From NCBI GenBank assembly GCA_964016885.1, contig OZ024763.1:2170001-2234000 (forward strand): DNA of 64,000 nt. The letters run 5' to 3'. Of this stretch, positions 154 through 63,300 are shown piece after piece. The number at the start of each line of letters is the position of its first letter. The stretch's first letter is position 1. The DNA is from Eledone cirrhosa (taxonomy: Eukaryota). Under the pieces are notes generated by a model. That model searched no databases. It had not been told where the DNA came from and worked only from the letters and a program-made list of their open reading frames with translations. The translations under genes were made by a program, and so were the position numbers.

Positions 154-156
<3 letters not shown>

Positions 157-357
157 CCAGTAAGACCCCGACAGCTGAGCTCAAGCCGTTTCGACGGCTA
201 ATTGGTTTCGACGGCTAATTGGTCCAGAATTAGCCGTCGAAACGGCTTGAGCTCAGCTGTCGGGGTCTTACTGGTTCCTATTACCCACTCTACTACCTCA
301 AGTATTGAGTACTTTGGTGCGTTATGGTCCACCTGGTTCCTTACCACTTTTCCTTCG

Positions 358-359
<2 letters not shown>
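154..359 (+). mobile_element. Family B fold-back element (Penelope-like pLTR derivative) in (TA)n; palindrome 154-277 made of two 3' hammerhead halves plus an 80 bp tail
   Basis: Inverted repeat centred on GACGGCTAATT..AATTAGCCGTC, followed by GAAA-CGGCT-TGAGCTC-AGCTG-TC-GGGGT. Homologous to 875-1062, 42983-43176 and 43345-43473. (TA)n on both sides. Confidence 0.75.
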
Positions 360-402
<43 letters not shown>

Positions 403-525
403 GGAGGTGAGTTTTATTGTAGTACAATAAAGCAATGCAGATATCGGATAAGAAGCACTCTACAGTTTGTAGGACTGGAGTATATATAATATATAAGAAC
501 AAAAGATAGTTAAAAGAGTTCCATG

Positions 526-596
526 TATTTTATTATGCGCATTTCAAAAACAAATATCATCATGCAATAATATTTGTGTTTTCATCAGATAAAACA
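526..596 (-). ncRNA. Minimal type I hammerhead ribozyme (family A)
   Basis: TGTTTTAT-CTGATGA-stem II hairpin-GAAA-T-GCGC-A-TA-ATAAAATA on the minus strand. Confidence 0.85.
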
Positions 597-724
597 GGAA
601 GACATGATATGAAGGTTAAAAAACACTTGTGGATAGTGCAGTTTTAAATCAATATATCAACATATATGTTGATTTAAAACTGCACTATCCACAAGTGTTT
701 TTTAACCTTCATATCATGTCTTCC

Positions 725-795
725 TATTTTATCTGATGAAAACACAAATATTATTGCATGATGATATTTGTTTTTGAAATGCGCATAATAAAATA
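725..795 (+). ncRNA. Minimal type I hammerhead ribozyme (family A)
   Basis: Stem I TATTTTAT/ATAAAATA (8 bp), CTGATGA 733-739, stem II AAACACAAATATTAT..ATGATATTTGTTTTT, GAAA 776-779, stem III T-GCGC-A, UA cleavage site 786-787. Confidence 0.9.
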
Positions 796-832
796 CATGG
801 AACTCTTTTAACCATCTTTTGTTCTTATATAT

Positions 833-874: not shown

Positions 875-1060
875 GGAAAAAGTATGACCCCGACGGCAGA
901 GCTCAAACCGTTGCGACGGCTATTTCTGGAAATAGCCGTCGAAACGGCTTCAGCTCTGCCGTCGGGGTCATACTTTTTTCCTATTTCCCACTCTACTACC
1001 CTAAGTATTGAGTACTCTCATGCGTTATGGTCCATCTGGTTCCTTACCACAATTCCTTTG

Positions 1061-1240: not shown

Positions 1241-1331
1241 GGTGTTTCATCTGGAGCAAATTTTATCACTAAATATAGAGTGCTAATTTTGGCATACCGC
1301 CTATGGAAGCACCATAGCTTCCATTATACAC

Positions 1332-14404: not shown

Positions 14405-14651
14405 TCTAGGGCGGGTAAAATTCCCGAGATCCATGGACGAGTTCTCTCCAGCGGTCTCTGTCCCTCATTATCGCTGCCATGTCCTGCGTCTCCAACAGAC
14501 CAGTGTCTGTCCTTAGGGCATCAACATACGTTAACCTTGGTCTTCCTCTTCCAGTGTGTCCATGCAGGGGCTCCCACAGGAGCACTGAGTGCAATGTCAA
14601 CTCTGGATGTCGGTGAGCATGTCCAGCTAACCTCAGTCTCCTCTGTGTCAC
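14405..14651 (-). mobile_element. 5'-truncated RTE-clade LINE (ORF2 C-terminus intact)
   Basis: [23 protein letters not shown] and M.DRDRWR motifs. Probable TSD AATGCTATAT at 14395 and 14652. Confidence 0.85.
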
Positions 14652-14704
14652 AATGCTATATATATATATATATATGTGTATGTCTATATGGATGTAAAAT
14701 ACTG

Positions 14705-14741
<37 letters not shown>

Positions 14742-15494
14742 CTAACCCATGCTAGCGTGGAAGATGGACGTTAAACGATGATGATGATGATGGTGATATG
14801 AGAGTTTTTATAGACCTGCATCTATATTAGTATAGGCATTCATCTAATTATCCTACTTACACACACAGACACACACATACTCTCACATCACATACACAGG
14901 CACACACATTCACACACACACACACACACATTCACACACACACACACACTGTGTCTAACAACAATATGCACATACATATAGACACATACAATACATAAAA
15001 ACACAACACATACAAACATATACTCCCACACAACCCAAACGCACTCAATACACACACACAAACACCACACAATACACATACACACATACAAACATGAGCG
15101 CATACAAACACACACAAACAATATACACACACAAACGCACTCAATACAATACACACACACAAACACCACACAATACACATACACATAAATAAGCATACAC
15201 ATACAAACACACACAATATACACACACACACAATACTCACAAACGACACACACTCACACACACCAGACATATGAAGCATATTAAAGTGTGACTTATCAGT
15301 GATAAAGGAATCCTGTCTAATGTGGAACTCTTCTGTGTCTCTTAGTTGTTGGAATATTCTGGCATGGAAGCCATCTTGTTTCCAAACCTGTCAATTATCA
15401 CCTTTTCCACAGATAATGCAGTTACTAGTGTGTATATATATATTATATTATTATATGTACGTATAAGTGCGCTTGTAGTATATGTACACTTTGA

Positions 15495-15635
15495 AGCATA
15501 GAGTTACGTCCCTTTATGATCTGAGTTCAAATCCCGCCGAGGTTAACTTTGCCTTTCATCCTTACGGGGTCGATAAAATAAAGTACCAGTAATGTACTGG
15601 GGTAATTACTGGCCTTGTGTCTAAATCAGAAACAA
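15495..15635 (+). mobile_element. SINE S2, 5'-truncated
   Basis: Matches 54875-55058. Confidence 0.75.
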
Positions 15636-16747: not shown

Positions 16748-17895
16748 ATAATAATAATAATAATGAAATTATTGTGTAAAGTGCTCAGGTGCACTACAAC
16801 TCGTCAAAGGTGTATGTATAGTACATAGAATAATACACAAATGTCAGGGAAGTACATGTGTGTATGTATTAGCTGTAGTGTTGGCAGATCTCGGGAAGCA
16901 TGGAGGCCTTAAAGGATGCAGTGTCTCGACAGCTTAAAACTGATGCAGGTAGTTTGTTCCATGGAGATTTTAAAGGATGCAGTGTCTCAACAGCTAACAA
17001 CTGATGAAGGTAGTTTGTTCCATGGAGATTTTAAAGGATGCAGTGTCTCAACAGCTAACAACTGATGCAGGTAGTTTGTTCCATGGAGATTTTAAAGGAT
17101 GCAGTGTCTCAACAGCTAATAATTGATGAAGGTAGTTTGTTCCATGGAGATTTTAAAGGATGCAGTGTCTCAACAGCTAATAATTGATGAAGGTAGTTTG
17201 TTCCATGGAGATTTTAAAGGATGCAGTGTCTCGACAGCTAATAATTGATGAAGGTAGTTTGTTCCATGGAGATTTTAAAGGGTGCAGTGTCTCAACAGCT
17301 AATAATTGATGAAGGTAGTTTGTTCCATGGAGATTTTAAAGGATGCAGTGTCTCAACAGCTAATAATTGATGAAGGTAGTTTGTTCCATGGAGATTTTAA
17401 AGGGTGCAGTGTCTCGACAGCTAATAATTGATGAAGGTAGTTTGTTCCATGGAGATTTTAAAGGATGCAGTGTCTCAACAGCTAATAATTGATGAAGGTA
17501 GTTTGTTCCATGGAGATTTTAAAGGGGGCAGTGTCTCGACAGCTAATAATTGATGAAGGTAGTTTGTTCCATGGCGATTTTAAAGGATGTAGTGTCTCGA
17601 CAGCTAACAACTGATGCAGGTAGTTTGTTCCATGGAGATTTTAAAGGATGTAGTGTTCCGACAGCTAACAACTGATGCAGGTAGTTTGTTCCATGGAGAT
17701 TTTAAAGGATGTAGTGTTCCGACAGCTAACAACTGATGCAGGGAGTTTGTTCCATGCTTCAGCAACTCTGAGCGTGAAAAAATGTTTCCGACTGTCATGG
17801 GAGCTGTGCTGTTTTCTGACTTTGTAGGCATGTCCACGTGTGTTAGACACATGGAAATCAAAAAGGTACTCAGGGTTGTTGTGGGCAACATGGTT
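16748..17895 (-). mobile_element. CR1-clade LINE 3' end with internal tandem amplification
   Basis: TRGHAYK..RKHFFTLRVAEAWNKLPASVV..SFK is the CR1 ORF2 C-terminus. 3' UTR and (ATT)n tail near 16750. Confidence 0.85.
16899..17755. repeat. 61 bp minisatellite, about 14 copies, made from CR1 coding sequence
   Basis: Unit ATGGAGATTTTAAAGGATGCAGTGTCTCAACAGCTAATAATTGATGAAGGTAGTTTGTTCC. Confidence 0.9.
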
Positions 17896-17901
17896 AATAT
17901 A

Positions 17902-18232
17902 TCATCATCATCATCATCATTATTTTACGTCCGCTTTTCCCTGCTTGCAAGGGTGGGATGGGAACTGATTCTGGCTTGATTTCTACAGCTGGATGCCCTT
18001 CCTAACACCAACCTCATTTACAGTAAGTGCTGGGTGCTTTTTTTGCCGTGGCACCCCCACGACCACTTTGTAGTGGAATGATAGGGACCCCAGTCCCTAT
18101 CATCTCATTTCTACAGCTGAGTAAACTGGAGCAATGTGAAATAAAGTGTCTTGCTCAAGGAAACAACACATCACCCGGTCTGAGAATTGAACTCACAACC
18201 TTTCGATTGCAAGGCCAATGCTCTAACCACTA
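17902..18232 (-). mobile_element. tRNA-derived SINE S1 (CORE-like box, RTE tail)
   Basis: Matches full-length 62943-63300. Confidence 0.85.
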
Positions 18233-18774
18233 TATATTTAAACATAAACATAGATACATATATGTGGCCCAAGGAATCAATGAATTAAATAAATAATTAT
18301 TAATCAGAGCTATATAAAATTATAAGTTTGAAGAACAGGCAGATAAAATGTCCCTAATTTTTCTTCTTAGTAATAATAAACAGTGCTAGATTTACCTGTA
18401 AGCTGTAGTTTAGGGCCACTGTGTAGTCAGTACCGAACTTACCTGTAAGCTATAGTTTAGGGGCCACACATGCTTGGAGGCCTTATTTCTTAAAATATAT
18501 TTTTGTTTTATCATTAGTTTTTATTCTTTTACACTAAATCCTTAAAATTTATACACACATACATATATATATATACACCCATATAAATACACACACACAT
18601 ATATATATATAAACACACACATATATACACACACACACATACACACACTCACATATATATACATATACACACACATATATATATATACACATACACATAT
18701 ACTCACATTTTATTTCTCATTAACATTAATATTTTTAAAAAATAATAATGTATAATTATTTAAATCTTTTTTAC

Positions 18775-19885: not shown

Positions 19886-19934
<49 letters not shown>

Positions 19935-19974
19935 GATATTAAATAAATGGAAACTATATTTATAAAACCATATT

Positions 19975-20040
19975 TATTTCATTATATATATTTCGGGGAT
20001 ATCATATTAACAATATGTTATGCCTTCCTCAGACAAAATA
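19975..20040 (-). ncRNA. Minimal hammerhead ribozyme (family C)
   Basis: Reverse complement of 20202-20267 with one stem II change. Confidence 0.8.
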
Positions 20041-20201
20041 CAATATAGACAGTTTTATAGATAAATAGATTTGACATACCGTTCAACATCGACTTGTATT
20101 TGAAAAAGTTGATTTGGCAAGTTGATTTTTTCAAATACAAGTCGATGTTGAACGGTATGTCAAATCTATTTATCTATTTATCTATAAAGCTGTCTATATT
20201 G

Positions 20202-20267
20202 TATTTTGTCTGAGGAAGGCATAACATATTGTTAATATGATATCCCTGAAATATATATAATGAAATA
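20202..20267 (+). ncRNA. Minimal hammerhead ribozyme (family C)
   Basis: TATTTTGT-CTGAGGA(20210)-AGGCATAACATATT GTT AATATGATATCCCT-GAAA(20248)-T-ATAT-A-TA-ATGAAATA. Confidence 0.88.
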
Positions 20268-20552
20268 AATATGGTTTTATAAATATAGTTTCCATTTATT
20301 TAATATCGTAAATATACTCCAAATACTTGTTGAGTGCTTTTATATCAGTTATAAATATTTACTAGTTGTAACCCAACAATTTAAATATAACTTTCCATAT
20401 ATATATATATATGTGTGTGTCTATATATATAAATATGTGAATGCATATATATATATATATATATGAGGGTATGTATGTGTGTATATATAACAATGTACAA
20501 AACAATATATATACAATATATATATATATATATAGTTTTAATATAGATGAGA

Positions 20553-20700: not shown

Positions 20701-20780
20701 CTCACCTGAGGAAGGGCTTATGCCCGAAACGTCGTCCCCCACCAACACCCCACTCTCCAGAGCGTGAAATTAATAAACAT
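20701..20780 (+). ncRNA. Hammerhead core of Penelope pLTR type followed by AATAAA
   Basis: CTGAGGA-A-GGGC TTAT GCCC-GAAA-C-GTC-G-TC (20706-20736). Stem I is not paired. AATAAA at 20772. Confidence 0.65.
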
Positions 20781-20982
20781 TCGTTGTACTGCCTCTCTGT
20801 TTTGTCCCTGTTCAAATTTTTCCATTATATATATATATATATGTATACATTATATATATGTATACATTATATATATATATATAAAACAATATATGTACAA
20901 TATAACAATATATATACAATATGTATATATATGTGTGTGTGTATATATGAGTATATATACAAGTGTATAACCAGATGGTTAC

Positions 20983-22992: not shown

Positions 22993-23317
22993 TCATCATC
23001 ATCATTTTACGTCCTCTTTTCTCTGCTTGCAAGGGTGGGACGGGAACTGATTCTGGCTTGATTTCTACAGCTGGATGCCCTTCCTAACACCAACCTCATT
23101 TACAGTGAGTGCTGGGTGCTTTTTTGCCGTGGCACCTCCACGACCACTTTACAGTGGAATGATAGGGACCCCAGTCCCTATCATCTCATTTCTACAGCTG
23201 AGTAAACTGGAGCAATGTGAAATAAAGTGTCTTGCTCAAGGAAACAACACATCACCCGGTCTGAGAATTGAACTCACAACCTTTCGATTGTAAAGCCACT
23301 AAGCCATGTGCCTCCAT
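22993..23317 (-). mobile_element. SINE S1
   Basis: Matches 62943-63300. Confidence 0.85.
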
Positions 23318-23530: not shown

Positions 23531-23537
<7 letters not shown>

Positions 23538-23958
23538 TTAGTTAAGCAAAACAAGACCACAAATTTCACAAGGAAGAGATTATTAAAAGATTGTCAACAT
23601 ATTTAGTTTGATGTAAGGAATGTAGAGAGTATATTGATAATAATAATGTCCGTTTACAATTGTTTCGCTACTCCATATAATATTTCTGGATCAGATGACT
23701 ATAATCATAATTGATCTGGTTCAGTTGAAAATAATTAACATATTTAAAAAACAGAGTGGCTCATCGGAACTTCAAAGGAATATAAATTAAAATAATGGGA
23801 TAATGTTACATAATATAATGTTCCATATATTGGTTTTTACTATGGTGTCTCTATTATTACTCTCTACATTCCTTACATCAAACTAAATATGTTGACAATC
23901 TTTTAATAATGTCTTCCTTGTGAAGTTTGTGGTCTTGTTTTGCTTAACTAATGAATAT
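23531..23958. mobile_element. Family E inverted-repeat element (arms 23531-23631 and 23858-23958) with a hammerhead-like core in the spacer
   Basis: About 100 bp reverse-complement arms next to (TA)n. Confidence 0.75.
23652..23770 (-). ncRNA. Variant hammerhead with long stem II
   Basis: GTT-CCGATGA-GCCACTC...GAGTAGC-GAAA-C-AATT-G-TA-AAC. U4C core variant with only a 3 bp stem I. Confidence 0.6.
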
Positions 23959-32155: not shown

Positions 32156-32502
32156 TTTCATTTCATTTTACATCCGCTTTTCCCTGCTTGCAAGGGTGGG
32201 GGGATGGAAACTGATGCTGGCTTGATTTCTACAGCTGGATGCGGATGCCCTTCCTAACACCAACCTCATTTGCAGTGAGTGCTGGGTGGTTTTTTTTTTG
32301 CCGTGGCACCTCCACGTCCACTTTGCAGTGGAATGATAGGGACCCCAGTCCCTATCATCTCATTTCTACAGCTGAGTAAACTGGAGCAATGTGAAATAAA
32401 GTGTCTTGCTCAAGGAAACAACACATCACCCGGTCTGAGAATTAAACTCACAACCTTTCGATTGCAAGGCCAATGCTCTAACCACTAAGCCATGTGCCTC
32501 CA
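32152..32502 (-). mobile_element. SINE S1
   Basis: Matches 62943-63300. Confidence 0.85.
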
Positions 32503-32521
32503 TATATATATACACACACAC

Positions 32522-32773
32522 ACAATGATATTAAATAAATAGAAACTATATTTATAAAACCATATTTATTCTATTATATATATTTCAAGGATACCCTTGA
32601 AATATATATAATAGAATAAATATGGTTTTATAAATATAACTATATTTATAAAACCATATTTATTCTTTATTTAATATCATTGTATATTATACTCCAGAAA
32701 TCTGTTGAGTGCTCTGAATCAGTTATAAACATTTATATTTGTTGAATTACCAACAAATTGAATATCCCTTCTG

Positions 32774-32776
<3 letters not shown>
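32522..32776 (+). mobile_element. Family C element folded back inside hammerhead stem II (half-ribozyme palindrome 32546-32638)
   Basis: TTTCAAGG-ATAC-CCTTGAAA centre, GAAA-TATATA-TA-ATAGAATA on both strands, tail homologous to 20310-20397. Confidence 0.75.
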
Positions 32777-32828
<52 letters not shown>

Positions 32829-33175
32829 ATACTTGGGGAGGGACATATTGTAATAATATTGCCAGAAATAATAACAGAACACCTTCACTGTTAGGTTGGT
32901 TTCATTTCTGTATCTTTTATATCTCCACAGTTAATTCATTTGGTCCTCAATGTTTATCATTGACTGACCAACGGTCAAAAATATAGATATAAACACATAA
33001 TAAATACAATATCGGAGAAAGCTTTTTAACGATACTCCGGCCAATTCCAACTCACTCAACAAACATTAGGAATAAGTGATTATATTCCCAATTATGCCGT
33101 TCGGGGTGCTAACTAAAAGTATTGCGTAGAAAATTGGCTGTATTATTTCATATGAGACATATCTAATATATCTCT

Positions 33176-33405: not shown

Positions 33406-33456
33406 ATAGTCTAACAAAGTTCTTTCGTTGCACATTTGCAACATCATCAGTGGTAC
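33406..33456 (-). ncRNA. Hammerhead core (stems I and III atypical)
   Basis: CTGATGA-T-GTTGCA AATG TGCAAC-GAAA. Second copy at 56164-56216. Confidence 0.55.
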
Positions 33457-40400: not shown

Positions 40401-41173
40401 TTTATACATCTTTGTATACACTCATATAGTTATATATACATACATACATATATATATATATATAATTGTGGAAAAGTGACTTCTCTGTAAGGAATATACC
40501 CCATATATACCAATCTACACATATCTCTATATCTTTATATATACTCGTATATATATAATATATACACACACACCAATCTACATACATTTATATATCTTTA
40601 TATACACCCATATATATATATAAATATATAATTGTGGAAGAGTGATTTTTCTGTAAGGAGTAAACCCTATATATATATATATATATATACTCACCCTGGA
40701 ATATACCCTACACAAAATATCTGTATTGAGTACTTTGGACATTTATTATCATTTTAAGGAAACTGTGAATTTACATACATATATATATAAAACATATATA
40801 TTTGTATAAATATATATAAAATTATATATACACACACATATACATATTTAAAAATATTAATATACACAAACACATATATTTATTTTTAAAATATATACAT
40901 ATATATATACATACACACATATACAACGAAACACACACACACCCATACATATATATACACACACACACATAATCACACACACATACATATATTTATATAT
41001 ATACCCACACATACACACATTTATATATATATACCCACGCAGACACACACACGCATATATATACACACATATATTTATATATATATCCACGCAGACACAC
41101 ACACACATATATATACACACATATATTTATATATATACCCACACACACATATATATACACACACACACACATA

Positions 41174-41205
<32 letters not shown>

Positions 41206-41376
41206 CCCACACACACACATATATATATATATATACATATATATATTTATTAAAATAACAGATTAAAGTTTAATCTGTCATTTTAATAAATATTTGCTCT
41301 ACGGTTCTTATATATTTGATATATATTTATCCTTATCGAGCCCTCTTTGGATTTTAGTCTTCAAATTTATTATTAT

Positions 41377-41927: not shown

Positions 41928-42032
41928 ATCTTTTGTTCTTATATATTATGTATACTCCAGTCCTACAAACTGTAGAGTGCTTCTTATCCGATATCTGCAT
42001 TGCTTTATTGTACTACAATAAAACTCACCTCC

Positions 42033-42036
<4 letters not shown>
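41928..42036 (+). mobile_element. Family A 3' tail only
   Basis: Reverse complement of 400-507, with AATAAA followed by (TA)n. Confidence 0.8.
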
Positions 42037-42514: not shown

Positions 42515-42579
42515 TATATTCTTGAGTACTTTCATACATATAAAAGTATAAATATACTCTTATGCATGTGTGTATGTGA

Positions 42580-42982: not shown

Positions 42983-43176
42983 AACGAAGGAAATGTGGTA
43001 AGGAACCAGGTGGACCATAACGCACCAAAGTACTCAATACTTAGGGTAGTAGAGTGGGTAATAGGAACGAGTAGGACCCCGACGGCTGAGCTCAAGCCGT
43101 TTCGACGGCTAATTCTGTCCAGAATTAGCCGTCGAAACGGCTTGAGCTCAGCCGTCGGGGTCCTACTCGTTCCTAT
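42983..43176 (-). mobile_element. Family B fold-back element (palindrome 43061-43176)
   Basis: Near-perfect inverted repeat, GAAA-CGGCT-TGAGCTC-AGCCG-TC-GGGGT on both strands. Confidence 0.8.
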
Positions 43177-43289: not shown

Positions 43290-43472
43290 CCACCGAAACA
43301 GCTATAAAGGGCTTCCTGATGATTTCTCCCGAATGAAACAGATCACCCAACGACTATTTCTGGACGTCCAGAAATAGCCGTCGGGGTTAAACATTTACCC
43401 ACTCTACTACCCTAATTATTGAGTACTCTGGTGCGTTATGGTCCATCTGGTTCCTTACCACACCTCCTTCGT

Positions 43473-44857: not shown

Positions 44858-45014
44858 AGGCTGTGAATTGGCAGAGTCATTAGAATGTCGGCTAGAATGC
44901 TTTATAGTATTTGTTCTGGTTCCCTGCTCTCTGAGTTTAAATCCCGCCAAGGTTAACTTTGCCTTTCATCCTTTCGAGGTCGATAAAAATAAGTACCAGT
45001 CTAGTACTGGGGTG
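44858..45014 (+). mobile_element. SINE S2-related, diverged
   Basis: TGGCAGAGTCATTAG A-box-like and AACTTTGCCTTTCATCC core. Confidence 0.65.
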
Positions 45015-51905: not shown

Positions 51906-52239
51906 CATCATCATCATCATCATTATCATCATTTTACGTCCACTTTTTCCCTGCTTGCAAGGGTGGGACGGGAACTGATTCTGGCTTGATTTCTACAGCT
52001 GGATGCCCTTCCTAACACCAACCTCATTTACTGTGAGTGCTGGGTGCTTTTTTGCCGTGGCACCTCCACGACCACTTTGCAGTGGAATGATAGGGACCCC
52101 AGTCCCTATCATCTCATTTCTACAGCTGAGTAAACTGGAGCAATGTGAAATAAAGTGTCTTGCTCAAGGAAACAACACATCACCCGGTCTGAGAATTGAA
52201 CTCACACCCTTTCGATTGCAAGGCCAATGCTCTAACCAC
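51906..52239 (-). mobile_element. SINE S1 joined head-to-head with an RTE 3' end (52241-52347, +)
   Basis: Matches 62943-63300. The adjacent piece is the reverse complement of the 179 bp unit. Confidence 0.8.
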
Positions 52240-52803: not shown

Positions 52804-53085
52804 GAATTTTTTAATACAAGGAACTTGTTCTTTGTTTTTATTCATTGTTTTTATTAATTCATCTTGACTCTGTTTTTCCTATGATTTTCATCGAAAATTT
52901 TTGAATGCATCTTCTCTTTTCATGATATTTGGATTACATTGAGTTCTTCATACGGATTGGACACTACTTTTTCCAAACTACAGTTTCCAATCCGTATGAA
53001 GAACTGTGTATCTATATACATTTATATATATATATATATATAAATGTATATAGATACACACACACACATATATATATATATAGAT

Positions 53086-53141
<56 letters not shown>

Positions 53142-53171
53142 AGATCAAAAGATGGTTAAAGGAGTTCCATG

Positions 53172-53242
53172 TATTTTATTATGCCCATTTCAAAAGCAAA
53201 CATCATCATGCAATAATATTTGTGTTTTCATCAGATAAAACA
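53172..53242 (-). ncRNA. Hammerhead (family A), stem III loop mutated to GGGC
   Basis: Homologous to 526-596. Confidence 0.75.
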
Positions 53243-53306
53243 GGAGAACGTTGATTTAAAACTGCACTATCCACAAGTGTTTTTTAGCCTTGATATCATG
53301 TTCTCC

Positions 53307-53495
53307 TGTTTTATCTGATGAAAACACAAATATTTGTTTCTACTATTGGCACAAGGCCAGAAAATTACCCAGTACATTACTGGTACTTTATTTTATCGAC
53401 CCGTAAGGATGAAAGGCAAAGTTAACCTCGGCGGGATTTGAACACAAATATTATTGCATGATGATGTTTGTTTTTGAAATGCGCATAATAAAATA
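53307..53495 (+). ncRNA. Hammerhead (family A) with a SINE inserted in stem II
   Basis: CTGATGA 53315, GAAA 53476 and T-GCGC-A-TA-ATAAAATA are all intact. Confidence 0.75.
53335..53440 (-). mobile_element. SINE S2, 5'-truncated
   Basis: 12 bp TSD AACACAAATATT at 53323-53334 and 53441-53452. Confidence 0.85.
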
Positions 53496-54874
53496 CTTTA
53501 ACCATCTTTTGATCTTATATATTATGTATACTCCAGTCCTACAAACTGTAGAGTGCTTCTTATCCGATATCTGCATTGCTTTATTGTACTACAATAAAAC
53601 TCACCTCCTACATATATATATATATAGATAGATACACACACATACACACAAGTCTATGTACATCTAAGAGATCGTGTGTCTGTGTGAAACTATATTGAAC
53701 CAGTTGCCAAAACTATCCATCCTGTCTCCCATTTGTCTTAATCCAGTGTTCCACAGTTTTATCACCTGTGACACCTGGCTGTCTTTCAAACTTACCTTCT
53801 CCTTCTCCTCCTAACTCATTCCTTCCTTCCTTCCTTCCTCCCTTCCTTCGTTTCTTCCCCTTATTTCTTCAGGCATCATTATTCTGCAGTATTCTACTTC
53901 ACTGAAGACATTGTGTGTTTGTGGGGGGGGGGGGGATTGTAGTGGTGGTGGTGGTGGTGGTGGTGGTGGTGGTGGTGGTAGTGGTGATGGTGGTGGTGGT
54001 AGTGGTGGTGGTGGTGGTGGTGGTGGTGGTGATGGTGGTTGTAGTGATGGTAGTGGTGGTGGTGGTGGAGGTGGTTGTAGTGGTGGTGGTGGTGGTGTGT
54101 TGGTGGTGGTGGTGGTGGTGTGTTGGTGGTGGTGGTGTGTTGGTGGTGGTGGTGGTGTGTTGGTGGTGTGTTGGTGGTGGTGGTGGAGGTGATGGTGGTG
54201 GTGGAGGTGGAGGTGATGGTGACTGTAGTGGTGGTGGTGGTGGTGATAGTGGTTGTAGTGGTGGTGGTGGTGGTAGTGGTGGTGGTGGTGGTGGTGGTGG
54301 TGATGGTGGTTGTAGTGATGGTAGTGGTGGTGGTGGTGGTGGAGGTGATGGTGACTGTAGTGGTGATGATGGTGGTGGTGGAGGTGATGGTGATGGTGAT
54401 GGTGATGGTAGTGGTAGGAGTGGTGGCGGTAGGAGTAGTGGTGCTACAGACAAAACAACTGCAGTTTTTCTGGTGGGGATGGTGTGTGTGGTGGTTGTGG
54501 TGACTGTATTAGTGGTGGTGGAGGTGAGTATGGTGGTTGTAATAGTGGTGGTGGTGATGGTGATAGTGGTGGTGGTTGTGGTAGTGACTAGTGGTGGTGG
54601 TGGTGGTGGTTGTGGTAGTGACTGTTGTGGTGGTGGTGGTGGTTGTAGTAGTGACTGTTGTGGTGGTGGTTGTAGTAGTGACTGTTGTGGTGGTGGTGGT
54701 GACTGTAGTGGTGGTGGTAAGTATGGTGGTGTGACTGCAGCTATAGTGGTGGTGGTGGTGGTCGTAAGTATAGTGGTGGTCAAATGAGGTGCTGTACATT
54801 TATCAACCCCCATCAATCTACCATACAACCCTGTTCCCCCCCATAGTCTTCACATGCTACCATTATATCTTTCA

Positions 54875-55058
54875 TGGTGGATTGGCAGTATCGGTAGAGA
54901 GTCGGACGCCATGCTTTCCAGCATAGAGTTACGTCCCTTTACGGTCTGAGTTCAAATCCCGCCGAGGTTAACTTTGCCTTTCATCCTTACGGGGTCGATA
55001 AAATAAAGTACCAGTAATGTACTGGGTAATTGCTGGCCTTGTGCCCAAAGTAGAAACT
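54875..55058 (+). mobile_element. SINE S2, full length
   Basis: A and B boxes, TSD ATTATATCTTTC at 54862 and 55059. Confidence 0.85.
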
Positions 55059-55230
55059 ATTATATCTTTCTAGTTTCCAAAGACAATATTTTGGTTGTAG
55101 TTTTCCAGGAATATTTTACTTCCGTGTCCAGGAGATTGATATTTCTCCGTGTCCAGGAGATTCATATTTCTCAGTTTCAGACAATCCCGTAAAAGGGATT
55201 CTTTTCTTAAACTTTAATCTGTACTAATAA

Positions 55231-55980: not shown

Positions 55981-56260
55981 AGGGGAGGGTCATATTGTTG
56001 TAATAATATTGCCAGAAATAACAACAGAACACACTCACTGTTTGGTTGGTTTTCACTTCTGTATCTTTTATATCTCCATAGTTAATTTATTTGGCAATCA
56101 ATGTTTATCATTGATTGACCAACGGTTAAAAATACAGATATAAATATATATATATATATATATATAGTCTAACAAAGTTCTTTCGTTGCACATCTGTAAC
56201 ATCATCAGTGGTACTATTATGTTTCCTCCTGTTGTATTGTATGTCTATGCCATTTTTATT
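55981..56260 (-). mobile_element. Family F, deleted copy including the hammerhead core 56164-56216
   Basis: Homologous to 32834-32995 and 33404-33520. Confidence 0.7.
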
Positions 56261-56314: not shown

Positions 56315-56385
56315 GTTAAGTATTTCTGTAGAAAAGGTAAAGGAAAGAAGAGTGTTCTATGTATAGTACAGAGCTATTTAATTAT

Positions 56386-56537
56386 ATAATAAACAACACA
56401 ATATAATTATTCCATCACCCAAGGTTTCACGAAGTTAGACGATTCTAACAGAAACGTCTGATATCGCTCATCTGGTAGAATCTTCTAACTTCGCTAAACC
56501 TTAGGTAATGGAATAATTATAATGTGTTGTTTATTAC
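56386..56537. repeat. Imperfect inverted repeat with arms of about 60 bp, between TA tracts
   Basis: AATAAACAACACA..GATTCTA / TAGAATC..TGTGTTGTTTATT. Confidence 0.7.
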
Positions 56538-56560
56538 ATAAATATATATATATATATATA

Positions 56561-56830
56561 TGGAGGCACATGGCTTAGTGGTTAGAGCATTGGGCTTGCA
56601 ATCGAAAGGTTGTGAGTTCAATTCTCAGACCGGGTGATGTGTTGTTTCCTTGAGCAAGACACTTTATTTCACATTGCTCCAGTTTACTCAGCTGTAGAAA
56701 AGCACCCAGCACTCACTGTAAATGAGGTTGGTGTTAGGAAGGGCATCCAGCTGTAGAAATCAAGCCAGAATCAGTTCCCGTCCCACCCTTGCAAGCAGGG
56801 AAAAGTGGACGGAAAATGATGATGATGATA
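56561..56830 (+). mobile_element. SINE S1 with internal deletion
   Basis: tRNA-like head and RTE tail. Lacks the segment between GCTGTAGAAA and AGCACCCAGC. Confidence 0.85.
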
Positions 56831-62100: not shown

Positions 62101-62349
62101 GTAGAGGTTATATTTAATTTGTTGGGATACAACAAGCAAAATATTTTTATAACTAATATAAAACACTCAAGAATTCCAACCAGAATGGTTGCATTTTTTA
62201 AGGGTATGTCAATATTTATTTATAAAACTAACCTATATTATATTTTATCTGATGAAAGCGCACCATAGTTTGCCTTGGTGGCCCTTGAAATATGTATAAT
62301 GAAATAAATATGGTTTTATAAATATAGTTTCCATTTGTTAATATATTGT
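62101..62349 (+). mobile_element. Family C relative: inverted tail 62101-62170 plus a hammerhead-bearing arm
   Basis: The tail is the reverse complement of 20330-20397. The arm matches 20190-20310. Confidence 0.75.
62241..62306 (+). ncRNA. Minimal hammerhead (family C, different stem II sequence)
   Basis: TATTTTAT-CTGATGA-AAGCGCACCA..TGGTGGCCCTT-GAAA-T-ATGT-A-TA-ATGAAATA. Confidence 0.85.
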
Positions 62350-62589
62350 ATATATATATATATCATCATCATCATCGTTTAACGTCTATCTTCCATGCTA
62401 GCATATATATTTATTGATATATATATGTATATATATATATATATTAAAGATTTAAACAAGATTCAATGAGTATATCAAAGAATGAGTTTTACAGTAGATT
62501 GGAAGCACTCTACAACAAAAATAATTTTCCAGAGTTATTAATATTAAAATACAAATATTAATAAAATAGATGTTCTTGTGATCAATTAA

Positions 62590-62642
62590 ATTTTATTATA
62601 CATATTTCAGAGGTACAACAGTACGTCCTCATCAGACAAAAT
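62590..62642 (-). ncRNA. Minimal hammerhead (family D)
   Basis: ATTTTGT-CTGATGA-GGACGTAC TGTT GTACCTCT-GAAA-T-ATGT-A-TA-ATAAAAT. Confidence 0.82.
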
Positions 62643-62700
62643 ATAATGATACATGACATACCCTGAGATGTTAAATGGTTAAGATGTCATGTATCATTTT

Positions 62701-62753
62701 ATTTTATCTGATGAGAACGTACTGTTGTACCTCTGAAATATGTATAATAAAAT
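62701..62753 (+). ncRNA. Minimal hammerhead (family D)
   Basis: ATTTTAT-CTGATGA(62708)-GAACGTAC TGTT GTACCTCT-GAAA(62735)-TATGTA-TA-ATAAAAT. Confidence 0.8.
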
Positions 62754-62793
62754 TTAATTGATCACAAGAACATCTATTTTATTAATATTTGTA

Positions 62794-63300
<507 letters not shown>

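Follow-up and report, generated by a model that had tools for sequence, protein, structure and literature searches.

PLE reverse transcriptases form the sister group of telomerase, and the question addressed here is how these enzymes pick their template and why their insertions carry a one-sided tail and inverted arms. In LINE and SINE 3′ stem-loops, the R2 3′ UTR, hepatitis B epsilon, and group II intron DIVa, a small RNA structure binds its own RT and fixes the choice of template or the start of synthesis; DIVa lies near the start codon. Such stem-loops are single signals that are terminal or templating within themselves. The hairpin described below differs from all of these in that it is duplicated, internal, located 3′ of the presumed start and, in the proposed mechanism, uncopied.

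The Hydra clade of PLEs is defined by the motifs RWK and DKT, a CxCX5C linker, CxxC and CxH motifs, the absence of a CCHH motif, and an element length below 3 kb (Craig et al. 2021, PMC8557442). As far as the available text of that study describes them, Hydra elements resemble the stubs analyzed here in the type I hammerhead close to the 3′ end, in the use of (TA)n as target, and in inverted 5′-truncated copies with a one-sided tail, a published form of PLE insertion (PMC8557442; PMC3846280). They code for an ORF, whereas the stubs do not. The words "hairpin" and "stem-loop" do not occur in the main text of the study, and the motif is absent from its Hydra section.

Initiation has been studied in vitro in PAc, a Poseidon element from Anolis (Frangieh et al. 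2024, PMC11167929). According to the accessible parts of that report, two internal RT starts bound the PAc tail, and cutting and extension take place on both strands of the target; the RNA is required up to +172 and the main start lies at +111-118, so that approx. 55-60 nt of RNA 3′ of the start are required. The AT-rich target, the cutting and extension of both strands and the predicted dimer are likenesses to the system described here. However, PAc belongs to another clade, and its start lies inside an AC-rich stem-loop within the ORF rather than upstream of one. Its binding motif is unmapped and no repeated signal is reported, whereas both Hydra-type hairpins lie upstream of the ATG.

A further parallel is provided by SsnA and its NTS hairpin (Chenal et al. 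2025, PMC11893778). As presented in the available text, SsnA shares with the present system the GIY-YIG family, a hairpin, a key base 3′ of the stem and an action a few nucleotides upstream. In contrast, it is a bacterial single-domain ssDNase that does not bind RNA, and NTS depends on the sequence of its palindrome, whereas in the Hydra-type hairpin the upper stem is free to vary. Finally, non-LTR retrozymes are short, non-coding, PLE-linked units with type I hammerheads (PMC7229834; bioRxiv 10.64898/2026.07.22.740005); in the sections of these sources that were available they are head-to-tail tandems, unlike the dispersed head-to-head stubs considered here.

Hairpin-bearing stubs in the window

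The window is the whole 64,000-nt stretch that was analyzed. It is rich in microsatellites (40,806 of 64,000 bases were masked for self-comparison), and self-comparison reveals small families, A to E, that are inserted in (TA)n and most copies of which are fold-backs. Eight fold-back stubs carry a tail on one arm; the order is an inverted arm, a direct arm, the motif, and a remainder of 36-59 nt on the direct arm only. The elements are as follows.

154..358, plus strand: B1 stub; the inverted arm ends 9 nt before the hairpin start, and the direct arm contains the 3′ half of a hammerhead and is followed by the hairpin and a 45-nt tail remainder, with (TA)n on both sides
287..313, plus strand: hairpin 1 of B1; 34.5 bits with the covariance model (copy in the training set)
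400..832, minus strand: A1 stub; the inverted arm ends approx. 7 nt before the hairpin and is followed by direct arm, hammerhead, hairpin, tail and (TA)n; two piles of read ends
454..481, minus strand: bulged hairpin of A1; no variant inside it among the 40 listed
534..588, minus strand: core of the minimal type I hammerhead in A1, which runs from CUGAUGA as far as the predicted cleavage triplet and has a palindromic stem III (assigned from sequence)
990..1016, plus strand: bulged hairpin of B2 (element approx. 874-1061)
1260..1284, plus strand: uncertain, candidate degenerate hairpin whose lower stem includes two G-U pairs, within a piece flanked by (TA)n (1102-1334); no match to the covariance model
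19934..20397, plus strand: C1 stub; long fold-back, hammerhead from 20210, hairpin and tail
20316..20338, plus strand: bulged hairpin of C1
32691..32713, plus strand: bulged hairpin of C2 (element approx. 32525-32776, truncated inside the hammerhead)
40705..40734, plus strand: orphan degenerate hairpin; the copy consists of tail only and is flanked by (TA)n runs; 18 bits with the covariance model, E 0.009
41954..41981, plus strand: bulged hairpin of A2 (tail-only stub, 41930-42035)
43029..43055, minus strand: bulged hairpin of B3 (element 42984-43173)
43401..43427, plus strand: bulged hairpin of B4 (element approx. 43340-43472)
53530..53557, plus strand: bulged hairpin of A3 (element approx. 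53135-53611, with another repeat inserted at approx. 53327-53449)
56351..56374, minus strand: bulged hairpin of E, in the GCTC form with one C-A mismatch (fold-back stub approx. 56315-56541; hammerhead core degenerate)
62101..62348, minus strand: D2, a C-related stub; the inverted arm is joined to a tail that begins inside the hairpin (3′ half only, 62162-62170)
62504..62535, minus strand: bulged hairpin of D1, with a long loop (element approx. 62444-62798, hammerhead from 62635); missed by the covariance model

Copies read side by side share the layout RCWC, a variable stem-loop, a 2-nt bulge on the 3′ side, GWGY, and then an unpaired RCT. The hairpin thus has a lower stem of 4 bp, an upper stem that covaries, and a bulge that reads TT, TA or TC. 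A preliminary description of the window had reported six sites at which ACTC pairs with GAGT ends. Four of them (287-313, 20316-20338, 32691-32713 and 53530-53557, all on the plus strand) were recovered exactly, and two (62504-62535 on the minus strand and 40689-40734 on the plus strand) are present, each displaced by one base; the orphan at 40689 does contain a hairpin, but a better fit, with one mismatch, begins at 40705. The pairing itself was borne out, but the conserved unit is larger, as it includes the whole 4-bp lower stem, the 2-nt bulge, the upper stem and RCT. The GCTC form carried by family E had been overlooked by the ACTC pattern. Full minimal type I hammerhead cores are recognizable in A1, C1 and D1. 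In family B, CTGANGA is missing from within every copy: all that is left of the hammerhead in B1-B3 is the GAAAC...GUC half, and B4 has lost that half too. A hammerhead-like core at 43316 was not counted as a B ribozyme; it lies just outside the B4 arm and pairs poorly.

The pattern ACTC-N(8-38)-GAGTRCT matches the window 11 times, compared with 0.71 ± 0.83 matches in 100 dinucleotide shuffles (largest value, 3); the five matches beyond the six sites reported before are further copies of families A and B. A covariance model, the check suggested in the preliminary description, also gave 11 window matches at E < 0.01, three of which are training copies, and none in 14 loci judged to be chance matches. 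With Rfam, a tRNA was the only match in the window, and five loci searched with a cutoff of E 1 showed no match across their hairpins. On its own, the hairpin is of low stability (-0.9 to -12 kcal/mol), and degeneration is seen in several of the window copies. Candidate sites at 2917, 9798, 11002, 12584, 19006 and 23353 and a tRNA-derived match at 18249 were rejected as chance or unrelated, and a candidate hairpin at 42522 is doubtful. No description of the hairpin was found in the literature searched, a search that did not extend to Repbase/Dfam entries and figure-only supplements. The hairpin appears to be new, and the stubs that host it are a known kind of PLE debris.

The window stubs are likely truncated products of Hydra-type elements, and likely not self-sufficient themselves. 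They are truncated within the non-coding end, so a single ORF with RT and C-terminal GIY-YIG endonuclease, as expected of the clade, cannot show there; Pfam gave no match in 150 of 193 candidate window frames, and the best tblastn match of the L038 protein (see below), taken as a search for coding remnants, had an E value of 4.3. Tails of approx. 65-100 nt are longer than the 30-40 bp given in the literature. All copies are single or head-to-head. A MITE or DNA transposon reading was dropped on account of the unpaired tail on one arm and of pivot points that differ within a family, Helitron-like and SECIS readings were dropped on architecture, and a non-LTR retrozyme reading was dropped as the window copies are not head-to-tail tandems.

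Several other repeats were noted in the window. Several tails contain another small hairpin a short way upstream of the 3′ end, different in each family (410-428 on the minus strand, 334-346 and 20362-20378), and no sequence in common was seen among these. Two further two-copy repeats on the minus strand are possibly other PLE ends: one (33409-33456 and 56167-56214) has a CUGAUGA...GAAA core and ends in (TA)n, and the other (32836-32986 and 55983-56137) is approx. 150 nt long with a C-rich run before (TA)n. At 20706-20830 lies a hammerhead of another PLE type (GAAACGUC form), which has a tail of its own that runs to (TA)n and lacks the hairpin, a natural negative control. The repeat at 53327-53449 sits inside hammerhead stem II of A3 and has relatives at 2633-2823, 15489-15588, 44930-45011 and 54876-55065. 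A family of approx. 310 nt (17924-18232, 23006-23317, 32169-32503, 51933-52239, 56562-56815 and 62942-63266), the copies of which are 87-97% identical, has a tRNA-derived head (Rfam tRNA match at 56571-56628) and is a young SINE. An inverted repeat at 23535-23954 (97-nt arms, 98% identity, 226-nt spacer) and short palindromes at 52942-53005 and 41251-41285 were found without the hairpin. Frames at 14406-14741 and 17604-17924 (both minus strand), which have no Pfam match, resemble what we take to be the C-terminal ends of RTE-type and CR1/L2-type LINEs.

Covariation and folding

Base pairing was assessed in 25 representatives, five from the window families and 20 from loci in other collections, with first and second hairpins counted apart. 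In the lower stem, pair 1 is G-C in 21 and A-U in four representatives, pair 2 is C-G in 23 with two mismatches, pair 3 is U-A in 22, A-U in two and U-G in one, and pair 4 is C-G in all 25. The four upper pairs are formed in 25/25, 21/24, 20/23 and 14/16 representatives, against shuffle means of 19.2, 11.5, 10.2 and 8.5, and registers slid along the sequence score lower at every upper pair; five of the 25 representatives had another possible 5′ anchor. The flanks show little similarity between families (alignment scores of at most 28). An anchored count and a 14-copy subset were used because MAFFT misaligned the 5′ half of all 25 sequences. In the subset, which consists of copies of similar length and includes three related ones (L012, L017 and L027), 95.5% of cells pair and six of eight pairs show double, compensatory changes. 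None of 500 shuffles, which ignore relatedness, reached its covariation score. RNAalifold applied to the 14 copies returned the same fold.

G-U pairs outnumber A-C pairs by 7 to 1 (p 0.035), and the sense strand is therefore favored. Copies folded individually often settle into other structures, and the fold is accordingly based on covariation. In local context, the mean pair probability of the lower stem is 0.01-0.08 in window families A, B and E, and it falls below 0.3 in eight of the 25 representatives. Covariation across families with dissimilar flanks, together with a position tied to insertion ends, upholds the earlier proposal of a conserved cis element. The motif is a conserved, structured cis element, and a chance or neutral origin is very improbable.

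The hairpin in Hydra-clade elements

Metagenome contigs were searched with a hammerhead pattern from which the motif was left out, and 63 hits were obtained in 61 loci. The hairpin follows the cleavage site by 33-53 nt in 14 hits; 11 have (TA)n within 90 nt and no hairpin, and 38 have neither. The hairpin finder fires in 45 of 3,000 random windows. The group of 38 includes chance matches, tandem retrozyme-like repeats, contig ends, and broken or decayed copies. The 14 hairpin-bearing hits are not independent because 12 of them come from one superfamily in two related assemblies. Three loci of this search (L003, L024 and L044) consist of tandem units of approx. 144 nt, each with a hammerhead-like core, which are retrozyme-like and have no hairpin directly behind the ribozyme; in L024, a candidate hairpin lies approx. 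190 nt downstream.

One locus, L038, holds an intact frame of 706 amino acids followed by hammerhead, hairpin, tail and (TA)n. Its motifs are RWK, DKS in place of DKT, CxCX5C, CxxC and CRH, and the consensus of 57 relatives reads RWK, DKT and CxCX5C; the likeness of the L038 protein to published Hydra proteins was judged by eye. The intact protein (L038:40-2151) has no Pfam match at E up to 1, and 1,976 of 7,998 scored candidates match it at E 1e-20 or better. The clade of L038 relatives is large and poorly annotated. Searches of viral contigs found no related locus, nor did a search of genome contigs with the single protein, whereas an alignment of the 57 proteins, again without use of the motif, fetched 15 loci (L062-L076) from the genome collection. 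The hairpin is linked to the ORF in nine of these 15, in two the 3′ end of the ORF meets (TA)n before a hairpin is reached, and four have no flank. L062-L076 are animal PLE contigs within bacterial species-representative genomes and likely reflect host contamination of bins. Both searches, by hammerhead and by protein, bear out the link of the hairpin to Hydra-clade PLEs.

The supplement of Craig et al. (PMC8557442) contains six new Hydra consensi. Read by eye in the available part of that file, three of the six show a clear hairpin: Hydra-2_Amil from a coral, and Hydra-2_Ajap and Hydra-1_Ajap from a sea cucumber, the last of which holds two hairpins at its 5′ start. The hairpin is divergent in the copepod Hydra-1_Crog, there is a doubtful trace in Hydra-1_Obim, and none was seen in Hydra-1_Amil, a 5′-incomplete consensus that stops approx. 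40 nt past the hammerhead. Ten words from the 3′ half of the hairpin matched the Naiad and Chlamys files six times, and none of these matches was recognizable as the hairpin in the context shown; line breaks can hide approx. one match in nine in such a search.

No hairpin follows four hammerheads of other types in the protein-found loci, nor the hammerhead at 20706 in the window. The preliminary description had regarded the motif as shared across otherwise dissimilar hammerhead families. This holds for the five families of the window, but the motif is missing after other types of hammerhead, and it appears to be restricted to the Hydra clade and not a property of hammerhead families at large.

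Judged from their sequence, the window stubs probably belong to this clade as well. They have a type I hammerhead near the 3′ end (full in A1, C1 and D1, degenerate in E), they are inserted in (TA)n, with read piles at both ends that continue as (TA)n, and they show an inverted 5′-truncated copy with a one-sided tail. The (TA)n insertion is not diagnostic alone because it is common to Naiad and Neptune, and the inverted copy with its tail is general to endonuclease-bearing PLEs. The canonical minimal hammerhead cores in A, C and D do not fit membership in Naiad or Chlamys, which lack a canonical hammerhead. The assignment is indirect because neither an ORF nor a second hairpin was seen in the window families.

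Twin hairpins and insertion ends

All six loci with an intact ORF head carry two hairpins on the sense strand, placed between the hammerhead and the start codon. Their spacing is 62-68 nt from start to start, with a gap of 37-41 nt, and the ATG follows hairpin 2 by 12-32 nt in each of the six. In L038, at a contig edge, the 3′ half of a hairpin lies 18 nt before the first ATG, and L062 is truncated at its start.

To relate the hairpin to insertion ends, (TA)n-bounded flanks were aligned to hairpin-bearing copies, which yielded 24 rows whose end lies upstream of the hairpin. Four rows were dropped, one because it aligned different families, two because the TA stretch was internal and one because it matched a microsatellite, leaving 20 junctions from approx. 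nine families, nine of them in the window. In 15 of the 20, the tail-less end lies at -5 to -9 relative to the hairpin, the others being at -3, -4, -10, -12 and -14; TA microhomology blurs junctions by up to several bases. Ends of family B fall at -8, -8 and -9, where the upstream sequence is not AT-rich. The tail stops 7 nt before hairpin 2 in L064 and 8 nt before it in L069, the only loci with both a head and a tailed 3′ end, so that in these two loci the offset of the tailed end before hairpin 2 is the same as that before hairpin 1; by eye, the Hydra-1_Crog consensus, as given in the available supplement, fits it too. The structure supported by covariation, the duplication and the end offsets are shown by the data.

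Reads and contigs on half of A1 pile up where the element meets (TA)n, at 398 for the end of the tail and at 481 for the tail-less end: respectively 11 and 31 contigs in X1, 1,227 and 349 reads in X12, 1,676 and 284 reads in X13, and one contig at 481 in X5, counts in which RAD reads over-count single loci. All loose ends past the family A tail, among those listed, are (TA)n.

Some 5′ ends lie at, inside or shortly before hairpin 1, namely L069:1385 and window positions 40689-40705, 62170 (minus strand), 41930 and 42522, and the Hydra-1_Ajap consensus, as far as published, also starts there. A full element or a tail-only insertion can thus start at hairpin 1, whereas the mechanism proposed below predicts no such ends. 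They could reflect stalling of the RT at a bound hairpin, transcription start or nuclease cutting.

Proposed mechanism and alternative explanations

The hairpin is found in many unlike families, in twin copies ahead of the ORF in intact relatives and approx. 7 bases past the ends of inserted copies, and it is therefore likely to be a docking signal for the RT. Both its covariation and the end offsets are consistent with an RT recognition or priming signal. Of the roles offered in the preliminary description, RT recognition or priming fits. The motif is not a 3′-terminal signal: it begins the PLE tail and is left out of tail-less ends. We consider it probable, with appreciable room for error, that the bulged stem-loop, present twice between hammerhead and ATG, docks the RT, which starts cDNA synthesis 5-9 nt upstream. 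The protein would bind the lower stem, the bulge and RCT on a tandem or read-through transcript, and its GIY-YIG domain would nick a (TA)n target. The freed 3′ end would then anneal immediately 5′ of the hairpin, through a UA-type microhomology of 1-4 nt, and the hairpin that positions the start would stay uncopied. A start at hairpin 1 would give a tail-less end, and a start at hairpin 2 would give a tailed end, with hairpin 1 in the tail. One start per site on two target ends, both truncated early, would produce fold-back stubs such as those of the window, and the hairpin spacing would equal the length of the PLE tail. RT binding, priming and an RT dimer are parts of the model that we infer.

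Further, it is conceivable, at somewhat below even chances, that the tail serves as an RNA ruler, in which each hairpin docks one subunit of a dimeric telomerase-related RT with a cDNA start approx. 7 nt upstream; the spacing would set the tail length and yield head-to-head insertions, and hairpin 2 might gate translation of the ORF. A spacing of 62-68 nt predicts 54-61 nt of tail from the hairpin start. Family E (60 nt) fits this value, while families A-D, with 72-91 nt, would need a wider spacing because their tails exceed the prediction; a second hairpin was not observed in any of the window families.

A neutral relic of common descent, or chance in AT-rich repeats, could account for a hairpin that is weak and in several window copies degenerate. 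This explanation is largely refuted and very improbable, given the excess of matches over shuffles, the compensatory changes within dissimilar flanks and the lack of covariance-model matches in loci judged to be chance; moreover, among the 40 variants listed for A1, 0 of 28 positions are variable in the hairpin (454-481) versus 33 of 176 in the arm (p 0.01). Hammerhead cleavage would leave an uncapped 5′ end, and the twin hairpins might control expression of the ORF, by cap-independent translation, autoregulation or a promoter, with insertion ends falling nearby only as the linker is AT-rich. The position of hairpin 2 shortly before the ATG in all six heads and the TA microhomology at junctions agree with this account. 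However, family B shows the offset as well, although its upstream sequence is not rich in AT, and the offset is the same at both hairpins, which makes this account improbable as a replacement for RT docking; a translation role may coexist with docking.

Alternatively, the hairpin might act by cleavage. If it directed cutting of the RNA just upstream, by a host nuclease or by the element protein, two RNA 3′ ends would result and be used in end-primed TPRT. Both observed end positions would be predicted, and PAc RNA-seq read ends fall on tail boundaries in the available data (PMC11167929), but PAc initiation in vitro is internal to an uncut template (PMC11167929), a hammerhead already lies 25-60 nt upstream, and Rfam gave no match to a known ribozyme family. 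We regard RNA cleavage, too, as improbable. The main rival is a cut in DNA: the hairpin, in sense-strand ssDNA, would guide the GIY-YIG endonuclease to cut 5-9 nt upstream and so resolve an intermediate at either copy. SsnA, likewise a GIY-YIG enzyme, binds an ssDNA hairpin, needs a base after the palindrome and cuts a few nucleotides upstream (PMC11893778); tails are ascribed by Craig et al. to endonuclease-mediated resolution (PMC8557442), and the Drosophila virilis endonuclease needed the tail for recognition (cited in PMC11167929), as far as the accessible texts go. The 5′ ends that start at hairpin 1, as in L069, could also be explained. Nevertheless, an ssDNA cut presupposes a hypothetical exposed sense-strand DNA intermediate, the Ssn proteins are described as single-domain bacterial enzymes (PMC11893778), and in another PLE clade two internal RT starts explain the tail ends in vitro (PMC11167929, from the parts available). 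It is thus rather unlikely, and docking of the RT at the hairpin is preferred.

Implications

A small, duplicated, covarying motif lies at a fixed offset from both ends of elements of many families in several animal phyla. The hairpin is diagnostic in that it allows abundant ORF-less fold-back stubs to be assigned to the Hydra clade. If the docking model is true, a portable signal of approx. 25 nt would make any RNA an internal template for the Hydra-clade RT, and could serve as a tag for internally primed, RNA-templated insertion.
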